Origin: an uncultured Rikenellaceae bacterium
GTDB taxonomy: Bacteria > Bacteroidota > Bacteroidia > Bacteroidales > VadinHA17
DNA length: 64,000 nt
Reading direction: 5' to 3'
Assembly (NCBI GenBank): GCA_964638955.1
Contig: CAZWZQ010000008.1
Coordinates: 824 to 64,823, forward strand
The notes beneath the pieces were generated by a model that searched no databases, was not told the DNA's origin, and worked only from the letters and a program-made list of their open reading frames with translations. Positions 39,661 through 49,527 of the stretch are shown in pieces. The position numbers and the translations under genes were made by a program. The first letter of the stretch is position 1, and each line of letters starts with the position of its first letter.

Positions 39661-41004
39661 TTAAAATATTGAACCATATATCAAACCTGTGATTGTAGCC
39701 ATTATAACCACAAGACATACATAGACTGCTGTTTTTTGAGTACCTATAACATCTCTTATAACCAACATATTAGGCAATGATAAGGAAGGTCCGGCAAGCA
39801 GCAAAGCAAGAGCAGGTCCTTTACCCATACCGGAGGCAATCAATCCCTGCAGTATAGGTACCTCAGTGAGGGTTGCGAAATACATGAAAGCACCCACAAC
39901 AGATGCAAAAAAATTGGAAAATATAGAATTACCTCCGACAAGCGCTGATATCCATTCGTTTGGTATTACTCCTGCAATTGCTTTGCCGTCGTGTGTTGAA
40001 CCTAAAAGGAACCCGGCAGTGATAACTCCGATTGCCAGTAAAGGAAGAATCTGTTTTGCAAAGTCCCACGTTGCCAGCGTCCATCCCCGGTTCTCTTCAT
40101 CATTCCTATCCAGAAGGGTGATGACACTTAATGCAATAATTCCAACGAGCATCGGAACAAGCGGTCTGAGTTTGTCATTCTCGATAAATCCATTTGCCAG
40201 GAAAATAGAAATAATAGTGATGGTGGCTGCACTAAGCACCCATTGCCACTTGATCTTCAGGATATTAATCAGTGAATATCCCAGTACCAGGCTGAAAAAT
40301 CCTGTTAAATACCACTTATAATTCCATAGGTAAAACCATGTGCTTGAAGTATCTCCCTCAGCATGTTTCCCCCAGTTTGCAAAAATAAGAATCAGTACAA
40401 GCGTAAAGAAATGCAGGGATGTCTGCCACATTGGCCTCTTCTCGGGCGGCGGAACAATATTCATTTGTTCTTCTCTCTTTGACTTTTCTTCATTGCGATA
40501 TATAAATGACATTACCAGGCCTATTATTATGCTGAAAGAAACAGCACCGATAATTCTTGCAGCTCCCATCTCGAATCCTAAAATACGTGCTGTCAGTATG
40601 ATTGCCAGTATGTTTATTGCAGGTCCTGAATAAAGAAATGCTATCGCGGGACCAAGTCCTGCACCACGTTTGTGAATACTTGAAAATAAAGGAAGTATAG
40701 TACAGGAACATACTGCCAGAATTGTACCTGAAACTGAAGCAACAGAATACGCCACCCATTTTTTTGCCTGTGCACCGAAATATTTAAGCACTGATGCCTG
40801 GCTTACAAATACTGAGATTACACCTGCGATAAAGAATGCAGGTAATAGACATAAAACAACATGTTCACGAGCATACCATTTTACAAGGTCGAGAGCTGCA
40901 GCAATTGCCGTATTGAAGCGGGTGCTTTCAATCGGCAGAAAGAATGCAAAAGCAAAAACTGCAACTATCCAGGCAAGTATTTTGAATTCTTTTTTGAGTT
41001 CCAT
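39661..41004 (-). CDS. ArsP-like permease (COG0701 / UPF0718-DUF318 family)
   Basis: 447 aa polytopic protein with a vicinal Cys motif in a TM helix (AVCSCTILPLF). It is the last gene of an arsR-thioredoxin operon, the usual context for this family. Confidence 0.7.
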   Translation of the reverse strand: MELKKEFKILAWIVAVFAFAFFLPIESTRFNTAIAAALDLVKWYAREHVVLCLLPAFFIAGVISVFVSQASVLKYFGAQAKKWVAYSVASVSGTILAVCSCTILPLFSSIHKRGAGLGPAIAFLYSGPAINILAIILTARILGFEMGAARIIGAVSFSIIIGLVMSFIYRNEEKSKREEQMNIVPPPEKRPMWQTSLHFFTLVLILIFANWGKHAEGDTSSTWFYLWNYKWYLTGFFSLVLGYSLINILKIKWQWVLSAATITIISIFLANGFIENDKLRPLVPMLVGIIALSVITLLDRNDEENRGWTLATWDFAKQILPLLAIGVITAGFLLGSTHDGKAIAGVIPNEWISALVGGNSIFSNFFASVVGAFMYFATLTEVPILQGLIASGMGKGPALALLLAGPSLSLPNMLVIRDVIGTQKTAVYVCLVVIMATITGLIYGSIF

Positions 41005-41058
41005 TTAATTAGTTTGATAATTTGGGGATAGGTATTTCTTAAGATTATGAAATCCACA

Positions 41059-41074
41059 TCCCGCAATGGCGGGA
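41059..41074 (-). terminator. GC-rich hairpin TCCCGC-(4 nt)-GCGGGA between the ArsG-like and ArsP-like genes (attenuator/processing or weak terminator)
   Basis: Perfect 6-bp stem and 4-nt loop, read directly. It sits in the only sizeable (100-nt) gap of the operon. There is no strong U-tract, so its function is uncertain. Confidence 0.3.
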
Positions 41075-41104
41075 CAAACAATAATAAAAATATTTAATAA
41101 AAAA

Positions 41105-41803
41105 TTACATATAAACCCTGAATATGCAGTAAATACCAACTGCTATGAATAAGACTGCAATGACTCGTCTGAACCATAGCTCGAAGGTTTTCAGCTTACT
41201 ATACACTCCTGCGATACCCGAGATTGTATAGGCAATAAGCCACGCAAAAGCAATAACCGGAATCCCTGTAGCAATTGCAAAGACAACAGGAAGGTACAGT
41301 CCTGATGCACTCGTAATGGTCAGAGGAACAAGCATCCCGAAATAGAGTACGCCGCTGTATGGACAAAATGCAAGTGCAAATACAAGTCCAAGTAAAACAG
41401 CATCAAGATACCCCCATTTCTTTTTATCCTGCATCCGGGAAGTGAGCATGTTAAATCCGGGAAATTTAATTTTGATAATATCGAGCATGAATAAACCAAT
41501 AATTATCAGGAGCGGCCCGACAATCTTTTCTCCGTACCGCTGAAAAAAACCTGAGAATTTCAATTGATCAGCACCCAGGAAGATTATTAATGCAATGAAA
41601 GTATAGGTGATTGCTCTGCCCAGGGTGTAAAGCAAACCGTTAATAAACACACGATTACGATTTTCTATATCCCGGCTTATAAATCCCACAGCAGTAATAT
41701 TTGTTGCCAGCGGGCATGGACTTATGGCAGTCATAAAACCAAGCAGCAATGCCGTAAGCCACGGCATTGTGCTGTTCTCGAGAAGATTGGTCAGAAATTC
41801 CAT
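41105..41803 (-). CDS. CcdA/DsbD-transmembrane-domain-like protein (ArsG-family transporter-like)
   Basis: 232 aa with about 6 TM helices. It has the DsbD_2/CcdA-type N-terminal motif LLLGFMTAISPCPLATNI and a second Cys-Pro (FCPYSG). As I recall, this family is named the ArsG family in automated annotation; not verified here. Confidence 0.6.
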   Translation of the reverse strand: MEFLTNLLENSTMPWLTALLLGFMTAISPCPLATNITAVGFISRDIENRNRVFINGLLYTLGRAITYTFIALIIFLGADQLKFSGFFQRYGEKIVGPLLIIIGLFMLDIIKIKFPGFNMLTSRMQDKKKWGYLDAVLLGLVFALAFCPYSGVLYFGMLVPLTITSASGLYLPVVFAIATGIPVIAFAWLIAYTISGIAGVYSKLKTFELWFRRVIAVLFIAVGIYCIFRVYM

Positions 41804-41807
41804 GCAG

Positions 41808-42236
41808 TTATCTGGTCAGCAAACCATCAACCTTTTCGTTTATGATCTCCTTGAATTTTTCAGGTTTGACTACAGCGTACATAAAACACTCATTAGTCAG
41901 GTTGATCTTCTGATCTCCTTTTACAATAAGGAGTGTCTGACCTGATACTCCTAGTTTTTCAGCAAGAGGTTTATTTGCCGGCTCCTCAATGTTTACCGAT
42001 TGAAATGTCATTAATCCTTGCTTGAACTGGTTTGGGTATAATGTTTCAAGGTTTTCTTTGGCTCTGGCTTCAATAGTCCTGCAAGTCATACAACGCGCGG
42101 TAAAGTGAAAATAATAAGTTTCAATTTTATCGGAATAATTATCAGATGTTTTACCCTCTTTCTTTTCAGGTTGGGCATTACATGATATAAAGGGAATGAC
42201 TAAAACAATTGTAAAGAATAAACTTAAAGCTTTCAT
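41808..42236 (-). CDS. Thioredoxin-like CxxC lipoprotein (ArsF-family-like)
   Basis: The lipobox FISC is present. YYFHFTARCMTCRTIEA with a CxxC, followed by …GQTLLIVKGDQ…PEKFKE…, resembles the small ArsF-family proteins as I recall them. There is a 4-nt overlap with the upstream thioredoxin gene. Confidence 0.55.
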   Translation of the reverse strand: MKALSLFFTIVLVIPFISCNAQPEKKEGKTSDNYSDKIETYYFHFTARCMTCRTIEARAKENLETLYPNQFKQGLMTFQSVNIEEPANKPLAEKLGVSGQTLLIVKGDQKINLTNECFMYAVVKPEKFKEIINEKVDGLLTR

Positions 42237-42487
42237 AATAAAGTAATATATTGATTATTAGTAAGTATTTCTTTAATTTCTTTTGAAGTTGGAACACGTC
42301 CGCTTAATACAACCTTACCATTAATAACAAGTCCGGGGGTATGCATGATCCCATAATTCATGATTCTGATTATATCTTCTTCTTTAGTGATATCTGCATC
42401 TATCTCCATTTCACTCAAACCTTCACTGGTGATTTTTTCCAGTGCTTTACACTTTTGACATCCCGGACCTAAAATCTTAATTTCCAT
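42233..42487 (-). CDS. Thioredoxin family protein (redox-active disulfide protein 2 type)
   Basis: MEIKILGPGCQKCKALE…IMNYGIMHTPGLVINGKVVLSGRVPTSKEIKEIL matches the short Thioredoxin_3 family that commonly accompanies DUF318 permeases. Confidence 0.88.
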   Translation of the reverse strand: MEIKILGPGCQKCKALEKITSEGLSEMEIDADITKEEDIIRIMNYGIMHTPGLVINGKVVLSGRVPTSKEIKEILTNNQYITLL

Positions 42488-42530: not shown

Positions 42531-42884
42531 TTATTCATGAATAAGAGATTCTGTCTTTTCACAGGAAATATTTACTGACTTATTATTGTTCAGGAAATCA
42601 TCCAGCAACTTCTTTGCCTTTTCCCAATTTTTCCTGTTGATACAGTATTTTATATAAGGAGGATTAATCTCTCCCTGGATCAATCCTGCATATTTCAGCT
42701 CTTTTAAATGCTGCGAGAGCGTCGAGCGCCCTACAGGAAGCTCTTCTACCAGGTTTCCGCTGTAGCAGCATGAATCCATTTTGGAAAGTTTCTGCAGAAT
42801 ATATACTCTTACAGGATGACTTAAAGCCTTTGCTGTTTCAGCAATCTGCAGAACCTCCGGCGAAAATTTTATTCTGTCTGACAT
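42531..42884 (-). CDS. arsR: ArsR/SmtB family metalloregulatory transcriptional repressor (copy 2)
   Basis: ALSHPVRVYILQKL, the Cys pair MDSCCY and STLSQHLKELKYAGLI mark it as a paralogue of 39212-39544. The start is placed at Met-69 of the track ORF, because the upstream 68 codons translate an intergenic palindromic element. Confidence 0.85.
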   Translation of the reverse strand: MSDRIKFSPEVLQIAETAKALSHPVRVYILQKLSKMDSCCYSGNLVEELPVGRSTLSQHLKELKYAGLIQGEINPPYIKYCINRKNWEKAKKLLDDFLNNNKSVNISCEKTESLIHE

Positions 42885-42908
42885 ATTTTCTGATGATTTT
42901 ATTTCTAT

Positions 42909-42928
42909 ATTTCGCAAAATTACGAAAT
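42909..42928. promoter_or_regulatory. Operator-like palindrome ATTTCGCA-N4-TACGAAAT upstream of arsR-2
   Basis: An 8-N4-8 inverted repeat with one arm mismatch lies 25 nt upstream of ATG 42884. It has the same design as 39144-39163. Confidence 0.55.
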
Positions 42929-42982
42929 GTTTTTGTAAATTCACAAAGAAAATACAACGATTTATAATGTATGTTATATATT

Positions 42983-43074
42983 CCGGGCTAAAGCCCTGTT
43001 TACCAGGGGCATGACTAACCCGGGACTTAAGTCCCGGGTTAGTGGGTATGCGACACTTAAGGACTTTAGTCCGG
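42983..43074. repeat. GC-rich triple-hairpin intergenic element including a perfect 28-bp palindrome (43015-43042)
   Basis: Read directly: GGGC-TAAA-GCCC (42985-42996), the perfect palindrome CTAACCCGGGACTTAAGTCCCGGGTTAG (43015-43042), and GGAC-TTTA-GTCC (43061-43072). All three are variants of one GG(G)(A)C-T/A-rich-G(T)CC(C) theme, set in otherwise AT-rich spacer. Confidence 0.75.
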
Positions 43075-43113
43075 AACACTTCAGCCACATTTTTTTAGTA
43101 ATTAAATAGAAAT

Positions 43114-43482
43114 ATGAGCAGGCAAAAAACGCATTTAAAGATCCTTATAATCTGTACCGGCAATAGCTGCCGGAGCCAGATGGCACAAGGCTTTCTGCAG
43201 TTTTTCGACCCGAATATTGAGATTCGTTCAGCAGGGACACATCCAGCTGCTGAGGTCAACAAGAAGGCTGTTAAGGTAATGACAGAAGCAGGAATCGATA
43301 TCAGTCACCATAAACCCTCTGCAGGCAGCAATGATTTTGAACTTGCCATAGCAGTAGCCGTTTCAGTATTCGGGATCAATTCTCAGGCAGCATTTGCCAC
43401 GGTTATAGGCCCGCTTGTTGAAGTGCCTGTGCTGATAATGCTGGTAAATGTTGCACTCTATTTTAAAAGGAGACTATTTTGA
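43114..43482 (+). pseudogene. In-frame chimera: N-terminal half of LMW-PTP-type arsenate reductase ArsC fused to the last ~53 residues of an ACR3 arsenite carrier
   Basis: Residues 8-68 ([25 protein letters not shown]…[11 protein letters not shown]) are ArsC-like. From about nt 43321 the sequence ([53 protein letters not shown]) is the hallmark ACR3 C-terminus. The distal ArsC cysteines and most of ACR3 are absent. Confidence 0.7.
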
Positions 43483-43569
43483 TTACCAGGCTGACAATTA
43501 TTCATTTTATTCAGACATACTTTCCTTAAATATTTTAATTTTGACAGGAAAACTCTTAAATCCTGTCTT

Positions 43570-44475
43570 ATGAAAAACTTATTCCTGAATTTGTCAAAGC
43601 TGATTGTCTTAATCAGTATTATTATTCTTACTGTATCATGCAAAAAGAAAGAAAAACCGGAGAAATTCTCCTTTGCTTTTATTACAGACATTCATCTCCA
43701 GCCTGAAAACAATGCCGTTGAAGGATTTCTTAAAGCTGTCGATACACTTAACGATCTGAAACCTGATTTCGTTATCACCGGCGGAGATTTGATAATGGAC
43801 GCTCTGGCACAGAGATATAGCAGGGCTGACTCGCTATACACTCTTTATATCGAGACTGTAAAAGCATTGAAAATGCCGGTTTATAATGCAATGGGGAACC
43901 ATGAAATATATGGTATCTACAGCCGGAGCGGAGCAGATCCTGAACATCCTGATTATGGCGAGAAAATGTTTGAGAACCGTATCGGAAAATCATATTATAG
44001 TTTTGAACACAAGGGTTGGAAATTTATGATATTAAATTCCATAGAAGATACAGGAAGAGACAGTTATATCGGTCTGATCGACAATGACCAGATAGAATGG
44101 ATAAAAGATGAACTTCAAAAAACTGATCCCTCAATACCCGTGGCAATTATCACACATATTCCTTTCATTACGGCAAACACCCAGAAATATCAGGGTACCA
44201 CTTTACCCAACGATTCATCACTGGTGATTAGCAACGGCAAGGAAGTACTTGATCTTTTCGAAGGACATAACCTTAAACTGGTTTTGCAGGGGCATCTGCA
44301 TTTAGTTGAGGATATTTTTATTGACGACATCCACTTCATAACCGGGGGAGCAATATGTGCAGCATGGTGGAGAGGCCCCTATCGCGGTGATGAAGAGGGC
44401 TTTGTGCTGGTAAGGGTAAAAGGCAGTGAATTCGACTGGGAATTTGTGGATTATAAATGGGAGGTAAAGCAATAA
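43570..44475 (+). CDS. Calcineurin-like metallophosphoesterase, lipoprotein
   Basis: The lipobox TVSC and the motifs DIHL, GGDLI, GNHE and GHLH are present in canonical order. Confidence 0.85.
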   Translation: MKNLFLNLSKLIVLISIIILTVSCKKKEKPEKFSFAFITDIHLQPENNAVEGFLKAVDTLNDLKPDFVITGGDLIMDALAQRYSRADSLYTLYIETVKALKMPVYNAMGNHEIYGIYSRSGADPEHPDYGEKMFENRIGKSYYSFEHKGWKFMILNSIEDTGRDSYIGLIDNDQIEWIKDELQKTDPSIPVAIITHIPFITANTQKYQGTTLPNDSSLVISNGKEVLDLFEGHNLKLVLQGHLHLVEDIFIDDIHFITGGAICAAWWRGPYRGDEEGFVLVRVKGSEFDWEFVDYKWEVKQ

Positions 44476-44512: not shown

Positions 44513-45280
44513 ATGACCGGAGAAGCCATGCAAGTATATTTGAGATCTGTTCATAATTTCAGGGATATAGGCGGTGTTACAACTGTTGACGGTAAACATA
44601 TTAAAGAAAAGATGCTATTCAGATCAGCAAGTCCCGATAACATAACCGGCAGGGATATCAGAAAGATGCATGAGCTGAATATCAAGACAATAGTTGATCT
44701 TCGGGCTCCTGGTGAAACCGGCAGAAAGAATAAAAAGTTCGAAGGTATTCAGACAGTATCACTTCCTCTTGATTTTGAACGGACCACAAGAGAGAGACTG
44801 ATACCGCTGATAAAACAAAAAAATGCTTATAACTTAATAGACGATTTAATAGGTTCTCTTTACCTTGAAATTCTTGATGGTTCTGTCAGCGTCTTCAGGG
44901 ATATTGTTGATCTGCTTCTGGAACCTTCCCGATGTCCAATGCTGATTCATTGTCATGCCGGCAAGGACAGAACAGGGATTATTTCTGCTTTGATACAGAT
45001 GGCTCTGGGTGCTGATCAGCAATCAATAATTGAAGGCTATATGGCTTCCAATGAAGCCCTGCTTCCATCCTATAAAAGAAGGCTGATAATCAGTAAAATT
45101 CTTTACCTCGGATTCTTACCGGCAAATAATATCTTATACGCAATTACTGTAAGGAGTAACAATATTGAATCGGTCATAGAAAGGGTGATCACCTTCTATG
45201 GAGGTATTGAAGGGTATTTAAAATCTTCGGGTCCGGGCATGTCAGATTTTAAAGAGTTAAGAGAACGGTTTGTCATATAA
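44513..45280 (+). CDS. Protein-tyrosine phosphatase family protein (Y_phosphatase3-like)
   Basis: NFRDIGG and the P-loop HCHAGKDRTG are present. The alternative start is Met-6 (44528). Confidence 0.85.
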   Translation: MTGEAMQVYLRSVHNFRDIGGVTTVDGKHIKEKMLFRSASPDNITGRDIRKMHELNIKTIVDLRAPGETGRKNKKFEGIQTVSLPLDFERTTRERLIPLIKQKNAYNLIDDLIGSLYLEILDGSVSVFRDIVDLLLEPSRCPMLIHCHAGKDRTGIISALIQMALGADQQSIIEGYMASNEALLPSYKRRLIISKILYLGFLPANNILYAITVRSNNIESVIERVITFYGGIEGYLKSSGPGMSDFKELRERFVI

Positions 45281-46368: not shown

Positions 46369-46815
46369 ATGAAAACACTAAGATTCCTTTTAATTTTATT
46401 AATAGTTGTAGCAATTTCCGGATGTGAAAAAGAAAATAAAGAAAACAATAATAACATCAGTTTTGAAAATATGATCATTGATCATAACTGTACCGATCTT
46501 GTCGCTATACCTGCTGCCTGGATCGACTCTGCAAAGCTGAAACTTCATATTGCTTATGGCCATACCTCGCACGGCAGTCAGCTTACAACAGGAATGACCG
46601 GCCTTATTGATTTTAAGGGAATTGAATATGCGTGGAATAACGGAGGTACAAACGGTGCTCTTGACCTTCATGATTATGCAATGTCGGGTGATCTGGGAAA
46701 TCCCGACAGGACATCATGGGCCGACAGGACAAGAACCTATCTTGATGCAAATCAGAAAGCATATGCAGCCTGGTGGTTATGGGCAGGGTTGGCTGGATGG
46801 GGTGGTAATAAATAA
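46369..46815 (+). CDS. Hypothetical lipoprotein (possibly 3'-truncated)
   Basis: The lipobox ISGC is present, with a conserved-looking core (HIAYGHTSHGSQLTTGM). The last ~20 aa (AYAAWWLWAGLAGWGGNK) look degenerate or low-complexity. Confidence 0.5.
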   Translation: MKTLRFLLILLIVVAISGCEKENKENNNNISFENMIIDHNCTDLVAIPAAWIDSAKLKLHIAYGHTSHGSQLTTGMTGLIDFKGIEYAWNNGGTNGALDLHDYAMSGDLGNPDRTSWADRTRTYLDANQKAYAAWWLWAGLAGWGGNK

Positions 46816-46863: not shown

Positions 46864-49527
46864 ATGATAAAATTAAATAAGAAAAATAAGTTATCAGCGA
46901 TCTTTCTGATCCCGGCAATTACAGGTTTTTTTTCAGCGGCAGCGCAAGATAATCATAACCAGGATACAGTACTAGTACAATACTCTTCACTGAAACAGCC
47001 TGTTTATACTACTTCCCGGCTCGTTACTGACAGGCCTGTGATTGACGGTAAACTTGATGATGAATGCTGGAAATATGGAACATGGGCAGGCGATTATCAT
47101 CAGTGGATACCTGATGAGGGGGCTAAACCCACATGGCCGACAAAATTTAATATCCAGTACGATGATAAGAACCTTTATGTTGCTTTCAGGGGATTTGATG
47201 GAGAACCTGATAAAATTAATCGTATGTCTGGTGTTCGGGATGCGCAGGTAGGAGATATGATGGGAGTAACTTTTGACAGTTACCGTGATTACAGGACAGG
47301 TTTTGAATTTACACTAACAGCCTGGGGCCAGAAATCGGATCTTGTTTTGTTCAATCCCATGGACTGGGATTTCAACTGGAATCCTGTATGGAAAGGTAAA
47401 ACAGGCCTTGAAGATTCTGCGTGGGTGGCTGAAATGGAAATACCTTTAAGCCAGTTGCGCTACAGTAACGAAGACGAACAGGTATGGGGTATGCATACCT
47501 GGCGATGGATCTCCAGACTGCAGGAGGAAAGTAACTGGGAAATACAGTCAAAGACAGGGCCGGGAATGCTATATAATTTCGGGGAATTAAGAGGTATAAG
47601 TGGACTAAAAAAATCAAGGAGGCTTGAAATAATGCCCTTCATTCTCGGTGACCTTAAAACCATGAAGGAGGAGCCGGGTAATCCATTCACTGAAAATGGC
47701 AGGATATGGGGCGGTAATATGGGACTTGATGCAAAGATCGGAGTATCGAGCAACTTCACCATTGATCTGACAGTAAATCCGGATTTCGGACAGGTGGAAT
47801 CAGATCCTTCGGTGATGAATCTTACAGCATTTGAAACTTTTTATGAAGAGAAACGTCCCTTTTTCCTTGAAGGATTGACGATATTCGATTACAATTTTGA
47901 AGACAAGGATCTTTTCTACTCACGCCGCATAGGCCACTCACCATCCAGAACAGTAAGGCCCAATGATACTCTTTTTATAAATTCACCTGACCAGACTACT
48001 ATACTGAGTGCTGTAAAATTCAGCGGGACAACCTCTAAAAGCCTGTCTGTGGGACTTATACAAAGTCTTACTGCAAGTGAATATGCAAAAATCACCGATC
48101 AGTATGGGAATGAACAAACAACCATGGTTGAACCTATGACAAATTATGTTGTGGCACGAGTCCAGAAGGGCTATAAGGCAGGTAATACAGTAATAGGAGG
48201 GATGCTGACCTCGACAAGCCGCTTCATTGAAGACGCAAACCTTGAATTTCTACCCGACAAAGCCTACACTGGGGGCCTTGATATAAGACACCACTGGAAT
48301 GATAAGGAATTTTACCTGGATGCGAAATTACTTGGCAGTTATGTTGATGGCAGCAAAGAAGCTATTACCATTTTGCAGGAATCATCAGCCCGCTATTATC
48401 AAAGGCCGGGCGCCGACTACCTTGATTATGATACCACAAAAACCAGCTTAACGGGATATGGCGGTAAATTCACAATCGGTAAAGGTTCAAAGGGACTATG
48501 GAAATATTCGGCAGGAGTCTCATGGCTATCTCCTGGCCTTGAACTCAACGATCTTGGATATATGAATTCTGCTGACAGAATAGACCAGAAAAATGCAGTT
48601 ACATATTTTGTAAATAAACCGGTTTCAATTTTTCATTCATATGAAATTAATCTGGAACAGACTAATTCATGGAACTTCAATGGAACATGGCTTGGCTCAT
48701 GGGGTAAATTCTCTTTTACATCAATATTCAGGAATAACTGGAAATTTGGTGCAAATCTTAGCTTTTATCCTTCAGCGACAGAACCGGGAAGACTTCGTGG
48801 AGGCCCGGATTTTTTGATGCCAAATGCAATAATAACTTCTGGCAAGGCAATGACCGATCCCTCAAAGAAGATAGTCGCATTGATGAATTACCAGTATAAT
48901 AAATTCGGGAACCACTCAGGAACAAAATTTTCACTTGCTCCGGGTATATCATTGCGCCCACTCAGTTCATTGAAGGTCAGTGTCAATGCAAATTATTCTG
49001 AGAATCGCGATGATATACAATATATTGCTGAGTGCAATTATCTTGACGAAAAAAGATATATCCTTGGTACCATTGACCAGACAACCCTTGGACTTACCTT
49101 CAGGGCAGACCTGAACCTGACTCCTGAATTCTCTATTCAATATTATGGAAGTCCGTTCATTTCAAGGGGAACTTATTCCCGGTTTAAACGTGTCACAGAT
49201 CCTGAGGCTGATGATTATGAGAGCAGGTTCATTATTTTCAATAGTCCTGTAATAAACGATGGCACTTATAGTCTGGATGAGACCGGTGATATGATACCCG
49301 ATTATTTCATAGGCAATCCTGATTTCAATTTCCACCAGTTCCGTTCCAACCTTGTTGCCAGATGGGAATACAGGTTAGGATCATTTATTTACCTGGTCTG
49401 GTCAAGTGAACGTACAGGCCAAAGCAGTCTTTCAAAAGCCTCAATTGGCGATTCATACGGTCAGTTAAGAGATGTGTTCCCTAATAATATTTTCCTGATT
49501 AAACTGAATTACTGGTTCTCCTTATAA
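46864..49527 (+). CDS. CBM9-like + DUF5916 domain protein (outer-membrane/secreted, carbohydrate-binding family 9-like)
   Basis: Signal peptide present. The N-terminal segment (IDGKLDDECW…W….D.…YDDKNLYVAFRGFD) is typical of CBM9-like modules. The long beta-rich C-terminal region ends in aromatic-rich LIKLNYWFSL. Confidence 0.7.
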   Translation: MIKLNKKNKLSAIFLIPAITGFFSAAAQDNHNQDTVLVQYSSLKQPVYTTSRLVTDRPVIDGKLDDECWKYGTWAGDYHQWIPDEGAKPTWPTKFNIQYDDKNLYVAFRGFDGEPDKINRMSGVRDAQVGDMMGVTFDSYRDYRTGFEFTLTAWGQKSDLVLFNPMDWDFNWNPVWKGKTGLEDSAWVAEMEIPLSQLRYSNEDEQVWGMHTWRWISRLQEESNWEIQSKTGPGMLYNFGELRGISGLKKSRRLEIMPFILGDLKTMKEEPGNPFTENGRIWGGNMGLDAKIGVSSNFTIDLTVNPDFGQVESDPSVMNLTAFETFYEEKRPFFLEGLTIFDYNFEDKDLFYSRRIGHSPSRTVRPNDTLFINSPDQTTILSAVKFSGTTSKSLSVGLIQSLTASEYAKITDQYGNEQTTMVEPMTNYVVARVQKGYKAGNTVIGGMLTSTSRFIEDANLEFLPDKAYTGGLDIRHHWNDKEFYLDAKLLGSYVDGSKEAITILQESSARYYQRPGADYLDYDTTKTSLTGYGGKFTIGKGSKGLWKYSAGVSWLSPGLELNDLGYMNSADRIDQKNAVTYFVNKPVSIFHSYEINLEQTNSWNFNGTWLGSWGKFSFTSIFRNNWKFGANLSFYPSATEPGRLRGGPDFLMPNAIITSGKAMTDPSKKIVALMNYQYNKFGNHSGTKFSLAPGISLRPLSSLKVSVNANYSENRDDIQYIAECNYLDEKRYILGTIDQTTLGLTFRADLNLTPEFSIQYYGSPFISRGTYSRFKRVTDPEADDYESRFIIFNSPVINDGTYSLDETGDMIPDYFIGNPDFNFHQFRSNLVARWEYRLGSFIYLVWSSERTGQSSLSKASIGDSYGQLRDVFPNNIFLIKLNYWFSL

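Follow-up and report, generated by a model that had tools for sequence, protein, structure and literature searches.

The arsenic island of an uncultured Rikenellaceae lineage holds a short ORF that begins as an arsenate reductase gene (arsC) and ends as an arsenite efflux carrier gene (acr3). This raises the question of whether the ORF encodes a protein with a role of its own or is the scar of a loss of DNA, and, if so, what was lost. The ORF lies at 43114..43482 on the forward strand of the stretch of DNA analysed here (64 kb, referred to as the window) and comprises 122 codons plus TGA, with an ATG start. It was taken from the ORF list and gave two non-overlapping family matches. A preliminary description had read it as arsC and acr3 remnants fused in frame by deletion of the DNA between them, and the ORF, its halves and their junction proved to be correct to the nucleotide.

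Codons 1–69 (43114..43320, forward strand) are derived from a thioredoxin-type arsenate reductase of the LMW-PTP fold, with matches to both LMWPc and TIGR02691. Residues 10–69 corresponded to positions 1–68 of 144 in Pfam LMWPc (E 4.4e-13) and residues 10–74 to positions 1–65 of 129 in TIGR02691 (arsC_pI258_fam), for which the score of 58.6 bits was below the cut-off of 174.3. Alignment with the solved structures of B. subtilis and S. aureus pI258 ArsC (1jl3 and 1ljl) covered chain residues 6–66/71 only. The CX5R(S/T) P-loop is kept as C14-T-G-N-S-C-R20-S and was aligned to the P-loops of 1jl3 and 1ljl. Cys14 and Cys19 are the only cysteines in the chimera, the equivalents of Cys82 and Cys89 (pI258 numbering) being missing, and both downstream cysteines are present in the intact 147-aa ArsC of a sister (P0002; ...ITVCDNARETCPVF... 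(...VCDNARETCP...)). The last 53 codons and the stop (43321..43482, forward strand) are derived from an ACR3 arsenite efflux carrier and match TIGR00832. Residues 70–114 corresponded to positions 283–327 of 327 in this model (E 3.7e-20), or 45 of its 327 positions, with a score of 72.5 bits that was below the cut-off of 282.8; a full-length relative from locus L033 scored 425 bits. Residues 291–344 of the L033 ACR3 (346 aa) aligned by tblastn to 43318–43479 at 83% identity, and the segment was 82–84% identical in nucleotides and 83–94% in amino acids to the acr3 3' ends of L033, L014, L018 and L023. The matches of both halves are far beyond chance (E 4e-13 and 4e-20, rounded), and the halves align to ArsC and ACR3, respectively. 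With both scores below the family cut-offs and the relay cysteines missing, each half is also too incomplete to work, as had been proposed.

The junction lies between 43320 and 43321 on the forward strand (TCT|GCA) and was located from the point at which alignment to the sister loci L001–L003 breaks and from comparison with the arsC and acr3 genes of relatives. The arsC' segment is 96.1% identical in nucleotides and 94% in amino acids to the intact sister arsC of L001–L003, and this homology ends exactly past 43320 (...CATAAACCCTCT|GCAGGCAGC...). The junction sequence, ...AAA CCC TCT|GCA GGC AGC AAT..., allows a microhomology of 0–2 nt. Thirty-five blocks of the collection contain the exact 122-aa protein, and it was read on 24 independently assembled contigs; the ten contigs listed for it each came from a different sample, assembled by JGI or Logan. 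The chimera has seven other variants, which differ from this protein by 1–4 residues, and the ORF is intact in all eight. The identical junction was also present in diverged variants (97–99% identity) that carry other flanking deletions. Recurrence of the junction in many independent assemblies, from JGI and Logan alike, excludes misassembly for practical purposes, so that an assembly chimera or a collapsed assembly has a negligible chance of being the explanation.

The retained parts can be compared with what the two families need. ArsC of the pI258 type requires Cys10, Cys82 and Cys89 together with an intact LMW-PTP fold, and ACR3 requires its full helix bundle. The chimera is like the pI258/B. 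subtilis-type ArsC in its homologous N-terminal 69 residues and CX5R P-loop. Unlike this enzyme, it lacks the relay cysteines and over half of the fold, and the general-acid Asp of the ArsC family lies in the missing part. It is like ACR3 (about 346 aa in relatives) in its C-terminal 53 residues, after which the native spacer and the next gene are still in place; unlike the complete carrier (330–350 aa, 10 TM helices), it lacks TM1–TM8. A Cys in TM4 and a Glu in TM9 have reportedly been found essential for transport by mutagenesis of Acr3 (C. glutamicum/A. metalliredigens). The TM9 Glu is present in the chimera (E76 in NDFELAI), and the TM4 region is missing along with everything else before residue ~291. 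The retained ACR3 piece, which by the topology of ACR3 would be the second half of TM9 plus TM10, would form a hairpin and not the single TM helix first described; no solved ACR3 structure onto which TM9 and TM10 could be mapped was detectable by sequence. AlphaFold2, given the chimera as a single sequence, returned a mean pLDDT of 45, too low for the model to be informative. As only 69 of ~140 ArsC residues and ~1.5 ACR3 TM helices are left, an inactive relic is the best-supported reading, and the chimera product is probably without activity. If made, it would combine an unfoldable third of the ArsC fold with a hydrophobic TM9b–TM10 hairpin, giving a misfolded membrane-associated peptide that would be unable to complete the Cys10-Cys82-Cys89 redox relay or to carry arsenite.

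The extent of the loss was estimated from gene order in relatives, which were mostly Rikenellaceae MAGs, with the rest from Bacteroidales or Bacteroidetes. A divergent arsR followed by the full arsC-arsM-acr3 order was found in L033, L023 and L024. A metallophosphoesterase gene lies directly after acr3 in L033 and L023 and ~3.4 kb further on in L024, and a Y_phosphatase3 gene was present further downstream in L023 and L024. Parts of this arrangement were seen in L018 (arsM-acr3-metallophosphoesterase), L014 (acr3 directly followed by the metallophosphoesterase gene) and L016 (arsC-arsM at the contig end). The middle gene is an arsenite methyltransferase gene, arsM (NF008823, 338 and 333 bits with a cut-off of 263). 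The window retains the same downstream order on the forward strand. The native spacer between acr3 and the metallophosphoesterase gene (43483..43569), defined by blastn against L018, L033, L014, L001 and L017, shares its last ~50 nt with all relatives, in which this stretch likewise precedes the metallophosphoesterase gene. It is followed by the metallophosphoesterase gene itself (43570–44475; assigned with Pfam, and placed after acr3 in L023, L018, L033 and L014) and by the Y_phosphatase3 gene (44513–45280; assigned with Pfam, and downstream of acr3 in intact relatives). None of the missing gene parts, which a translocation or inversion would have left behind, was found elsewhere in the 64-kb window. 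When the breakpoints of the window were placed on L033 and L023, the gap was 1,960 and 1,970 bp, respectively, with arsM inside.

This order and the size of the equivalent gap indicate a loss of about 2 kb and not ~1 kb, and the deleted DNA probably included arsM. The ancestral operon would have had the arrangement arsR<- ->arsC-arsM-acr3-metallophosphoesterase, and a loss of ~2 kb that began at arsC codon 70 and ended near acr3 codon 293 would have removed the arsC 3' half, ~290 codons at the start of acr3 and, probably, the whole of arsM. We consider it very probable that the chimera is a non-functional remnant of an arsC-arsM-acr3 operon that lost about 2 kb in this way. The preliminary description had instead placed arsC directly next to acr3 and proposed a single deletion of roughly 1 kb (~1.1 kb), with arsM never having been there. 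Adjacent arsC and acr3 genes are common in bacteria generally, the chimeras P0003, P0005 and P0076 of other lineages probably arose from such pairs, and the direct ancestor is not among the recovered genomes. However, arsC abutting acr3 was found in none of the relatives recovered, three of which have the full arsC-arsM-acr3 order and two a partial order at a contig end, and this earlier version is unlikely. The relatives nearest to the window by flanks (L061 and L001) are without arsM-acr3, and the immediate pre-deletion state was not found in the genomes recovered. Because these closest relatives lack the two genes, we infer the presence of arsM in the direct ancestor from more distant relatives, with 52–85% amino acid identity in the metallophosphoesterase.

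Deletion of about 2 kb leaves the question of whether the two ends of the scar share one history. Identity of the arsC' segment was 95.9% with L001 and 86.2% with L061, and for the metallophosphoesterase gene the ranking was the reverse, at 94.9% with L061 and 88.6% with L001. Synonymous divergence from L001 was 0.09 in arsC' versus 0.34 in four flanking genes, with four synonymous differences observed in arsC' versus 15 expected (P=0.0008). The discordance of the arsC' allele with its flanks indicates that an arsR-arsC' segment was exchanged between lineages. Recombination with another lineage was thus involved, and a plain internal deletion is only one of the possible routes to the chimera. 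A variant of the main explanation, with the same outcome, is that the junction is itself the illegitimate end of this inter-lineage recombination (homology-facilitated illegitimate recombination, HFIR): the left end of an L001-like arsR-arsC fragment would have been joined by homologous recombination and its right end, without homology, within the resident acr3, with everything between replaced. The opposite affinities of arsC' and the metallophosphoesterase gene, the low synonymous divergence in arsC', the end of the low-divergence tract at or before the junction and the microhomology of only 0–2 nt are all in keeping with it. However, the same picture would result, with an equally good fit, if the allele had first been replaced by ordinary homologous recombination and an unrelated deletion had come later. 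Moreover, L001 is without the hairpin element found upstream of arsC' in the window, so that the donor was not simply L001-like, and the L061 arsC, a pseudogene in its own right, may have evolved at a higher rate. Weighing these points, we hold a one-step recombinational origin of the junction to be possible and rather doubtful, and retain loss of about 2 kb from the ancestral operon, by whichever route, as the preferred reading.

The region upstream of the chimera bears on its expression. The divergent arsR (42531..42884, reverse strand) matches Pfam HTH_5 and encodes 117 aa, the same length as the gene call in L004–L013. Between arsR and the chimera, a block at 42907..42934 is invariant in five aligned, diverged arsR-arsC loci and contains the inverted repeat ATTTCG-N8-CGAAAT (42909–42928), which is presumably the ArsR operator. 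A consensus scan gave a sigma-70-like site at 42940–42968, a result of little weight as Bacteroidota promoters are not covered by the scan, and no convincing terminator between this site and the chimera ORF was found by consensus scan. As the acr3 reading frame was by chance preserved across the join, the ORF would remain under the old arsR-controlled promoter, and it may still be transcribed from the arsR side.

A strongly palindromic element of ~96 nt (42981–43076) was also noted between the operator-promoter region and the start codon of the chimera. Its ends are GGGCTAAAGCCC...GGACTTTAGTCCGGAA, its centre is a perfect 24-nt palindrome (AACCCGGGACTTAAGTCCCGGGTT) and its predicted RNA fold has an energy of -55 kcal/mol (z=-6.7). 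The element occurs in the same place in L016 and is missing in the sisters L001–L003 and in L061. It gave no Rfam match above threshold, and the 64-kb window contains one copy. A pattern scan of metagenomes returned nine loci, of which eight were without arsR or arsC; the only one adjoining arsR/arsC was on the variant-strain contig L048. Compensatory changes were present in five pairs of the central stem. The element looks like a dispersed hairpin element of the MITE or REP type.

The remainder of the island lies beyond arsR on the reverse strand. It consists of genes for an arsE-like thioredoxin (42233–42487; TIGR00412, 106.7 bits with a cut-off of 62), arsF (41808–42236; NF040494, 109 with a cut-off of 60), arsG (41105–41803; NF040495, 307.9 with a cut-off of 200) and an ArsP_1-type permease (39661–41004; Pfam ArsP_1, E 1e-71). 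This four-gene module (39661..42487), a complete arsE/arsF/arsG set plus permease, is intact in the window, as first described. However, this did not extend to strains ~99% identical to the window (L048–L051; variants P0122 and P0124), in which the same junction was accompanied by three more deletions. The first (39926–41678) fuses the ArsP-type permease gene to arsG; the second (42750–42926, 177 bp) removes the arsR N-terminus and the operator-like inverted repeat; and the third (41853–41907, 55 bp) lies in arsF between 10-nt direct repeats. The permease/arsE/F/G module is thereby partly deleted in L048–L050. A loss of classical arsenate reduction and arsenite efflux had likewise been proposed; this loss, and with it that of arsenite methylation, stands for the locus and the 64-kb window only, as the rest of the genome may hold other ars genes.

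Further losses were found in sister lineages. L061 (JGI 3300009149) is the closest relative by flanks, with identities of 94.9% in the metallophosphoesterase and 96.7% in arsR; it lacks arsM, acr3 and arsEFG, and the metallophosphoesterase gene directly follows its arsC. Loci L001–L003, which include the nearest intact ArsC (P0002), have arsC directly followed by the metallophosphoesterase gene without acr3, and homology to the window resumes only ~50 nt upstream of the latter gene. The loss of arsM-acr3 is clean in L001 and L021, in which arsC lies directly before the metallophosphoesterase gene. In L001, the spacer between the two (705–866) contained no arsM or acr3 remnants and shared only its last ~50 nt. 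The stretches fetched upstream of the metallophosphoesterase gene in L020, L022 and L031 contained an arsR-like gene only, with no arsC, arsM or acr3. The chimera arose in one of a number of deletions by which the arsenic island of this Rikenellaceae population is being eroded, and we infer that selection for arsenic resistance at the locus has lapsed.

Two side observations concern nearby sequence. The arsC of L061 (3979–4330) is a pseudogene with an out-of-frame internal deletion from ~residue 66 to ~residue 113. The join permits an ACCGG microhomology, and its left end is ~10 nt from the junction of the window. The proximity of the two breaks is either a coincidence or the mark of a fragile spot near ...GATATCAGTCACC... 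Downstream of the island, a 148-aa ORF (46369–46815) differed from L049/L051 at 64 of 444 nt (pN/pS 0.42), in strains that are otherwise ~97–99% identical. In the adjoining 5' part of a DUF5916 gene (46864–47890), pS was ~0.2. The divergence points to a further recombination tract or a hypervariable gene just downstream of the island.

Whether the chimera has nevertheless been put to use can be judged from the variation within it. The polymorphisms among chimera variants (H43Y, K54N, T57A and S69P) are all in the ArsC' half. Relative to L049, this half has three nonsynonymous changes and one synonymous change, and pN/pS in the non-ars neighbours is 0.03–0.18. The pooled nonsynonymous to synonymous ratio was 4:1 in ArsC' versus 14:70 in the non-ars neighbours (Fisher p=0.005). 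The ArsC' half of the chimera differs from the intact sister at four amino acids, including the derived states F30 and I37; at position 30, S is found in 104 of the 108 intact homologues, and at position 37, V is found in 106, and the intact sister is without either change. Constraint on the ArsC' half is relaxed, as for a dead fragment. In the ACR3-derived half, there were no nonsynonymous changes and one synonymous change among few sites, and the probability of zero under neutrality was 0.03–0.24, depending on the assumed synonymous rate; this half may be under some constraint.

Searches by an exhaustive HMMER pass over 1.84 billion representatives and by a word-indexed search gave full-length matches to the chimera only in the cluster of eight near-identical variants (at least 90% identity), in agreement with the earlier statement that the 122-aa architecture is not widely conserved. 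Other in-frame ArsC'-'ACR3 proteins were recovered from unrelated lineages (P0003, P0005, P0076, P0133, P0137, P0153, P0194 and P0226; loci L041–L047). The junction was different in each, with ~25 to 125 ArsC residues and 27 to 100 ACR3 residues kept. The three chimera loci that were fetched sit in ars-like neighbourhoods, with no acr3 within ~7 kb on each side where the contig allows, and P0076 has a frameshift in the P-loop region. The differing junctions indicate sporadic scars and no conserved family. A conserved 115-aa family was considered from the P0137, P0185, P0205 and P0168 hits and was rejected, as these are mostly frameshifted or truncated ArsC and the P0137 junction differs. Four of nine junctions, that of the window included, fell within a few residues of ...T(L/V)(A/G)FTA(A/G)SN..., where the retained ACR3 piece begins; the search query and clustering at 50% identity bias which fusions are visible, so no junction hotspot is claimed.

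These data also bear on a third possibility, that selection maintains the chimera, or just its hairpin, as a small membrane protein, which might, for example, bind oxyanions at the membrane or act as a transporter-modulating micro-protein. The frame is kept in eight of eight variants, the ACR3-derived half is free of amino acid changes, at least nine unrelated lineages have in-frame fusions of this kind, and functional ArsC fusions exist, such as Acr3-ArsC of M. tuberculosis and AqpS-ArsC (PMC6205960). However, the junction differs in every lineage and the architecture is not conserved, the ArsC' half gains nonsynonymous changes at near-invariant positions, only 69 of the ~140 residues of the fold are left, and both the operator and the adjoining arsR are lost in sibling strains. 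Furthermore, a random deletion keeps the frame in one case out of three, and only such cases are visible to protein searches. A selected small protein is therefore very improbable, and a non-functional remnant of the deleted operon is preferred.

The chimera can finally be set against known systems. Known genuine ArsC fusions, for example AqpS-ArsC, ArsR-ArsC and the Acr3-ArsC of M. tuberculosis (498 aa), have complete domains (PMC6205960), and long ACR3-ArsC proteins of 456–611 aa were also among the matches of the exhaustive search. Like the M. tuberculosis protein, the window ORF has ACR3- and ArsC-derived sequence in one polypeptide (PMC6205960); in that protein, the carrier comes first and both domains are complete, whereas the window ORF has the ArsC part first and only a fragment of each. 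The ORF belongs neither to ArsC nor to ACR3 nor to this fusion class. The resemblance is closer to chimeric pseudogenes made by deletion, in which two same-strand genes are joined, constraint is relaxed and siblings or sisters carry more lesions, and nothing essential differs from these. The particular features of the present case are the in-frame join, the likely link to a recombination tract and the fixation across many samples. The chimera adds one more case to a familiar class, the chimeric pseudogenes that arise by deletion in a decaying resistance island.

The finding leaves known arsenic biochemistry unchanged and has a practical consequence for annotation. The ORF would be annotated as 'LMWPc protein' or 'arsenate reductase', and surveys might take it for a marker of arsC or acr3. 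As it is neither, metagenomic inventories of arsenic genes that use partial hits would overcount. For the organism, the locus provides a compact snapshot of the erosion of a resistance island in an uncultured sediment Rikenellaceae lineage, in which a scar fixed in many samples, sibling deletions, independent clean arsM-acr3 losses in sisters and a recombinant arsC allele are seen together.
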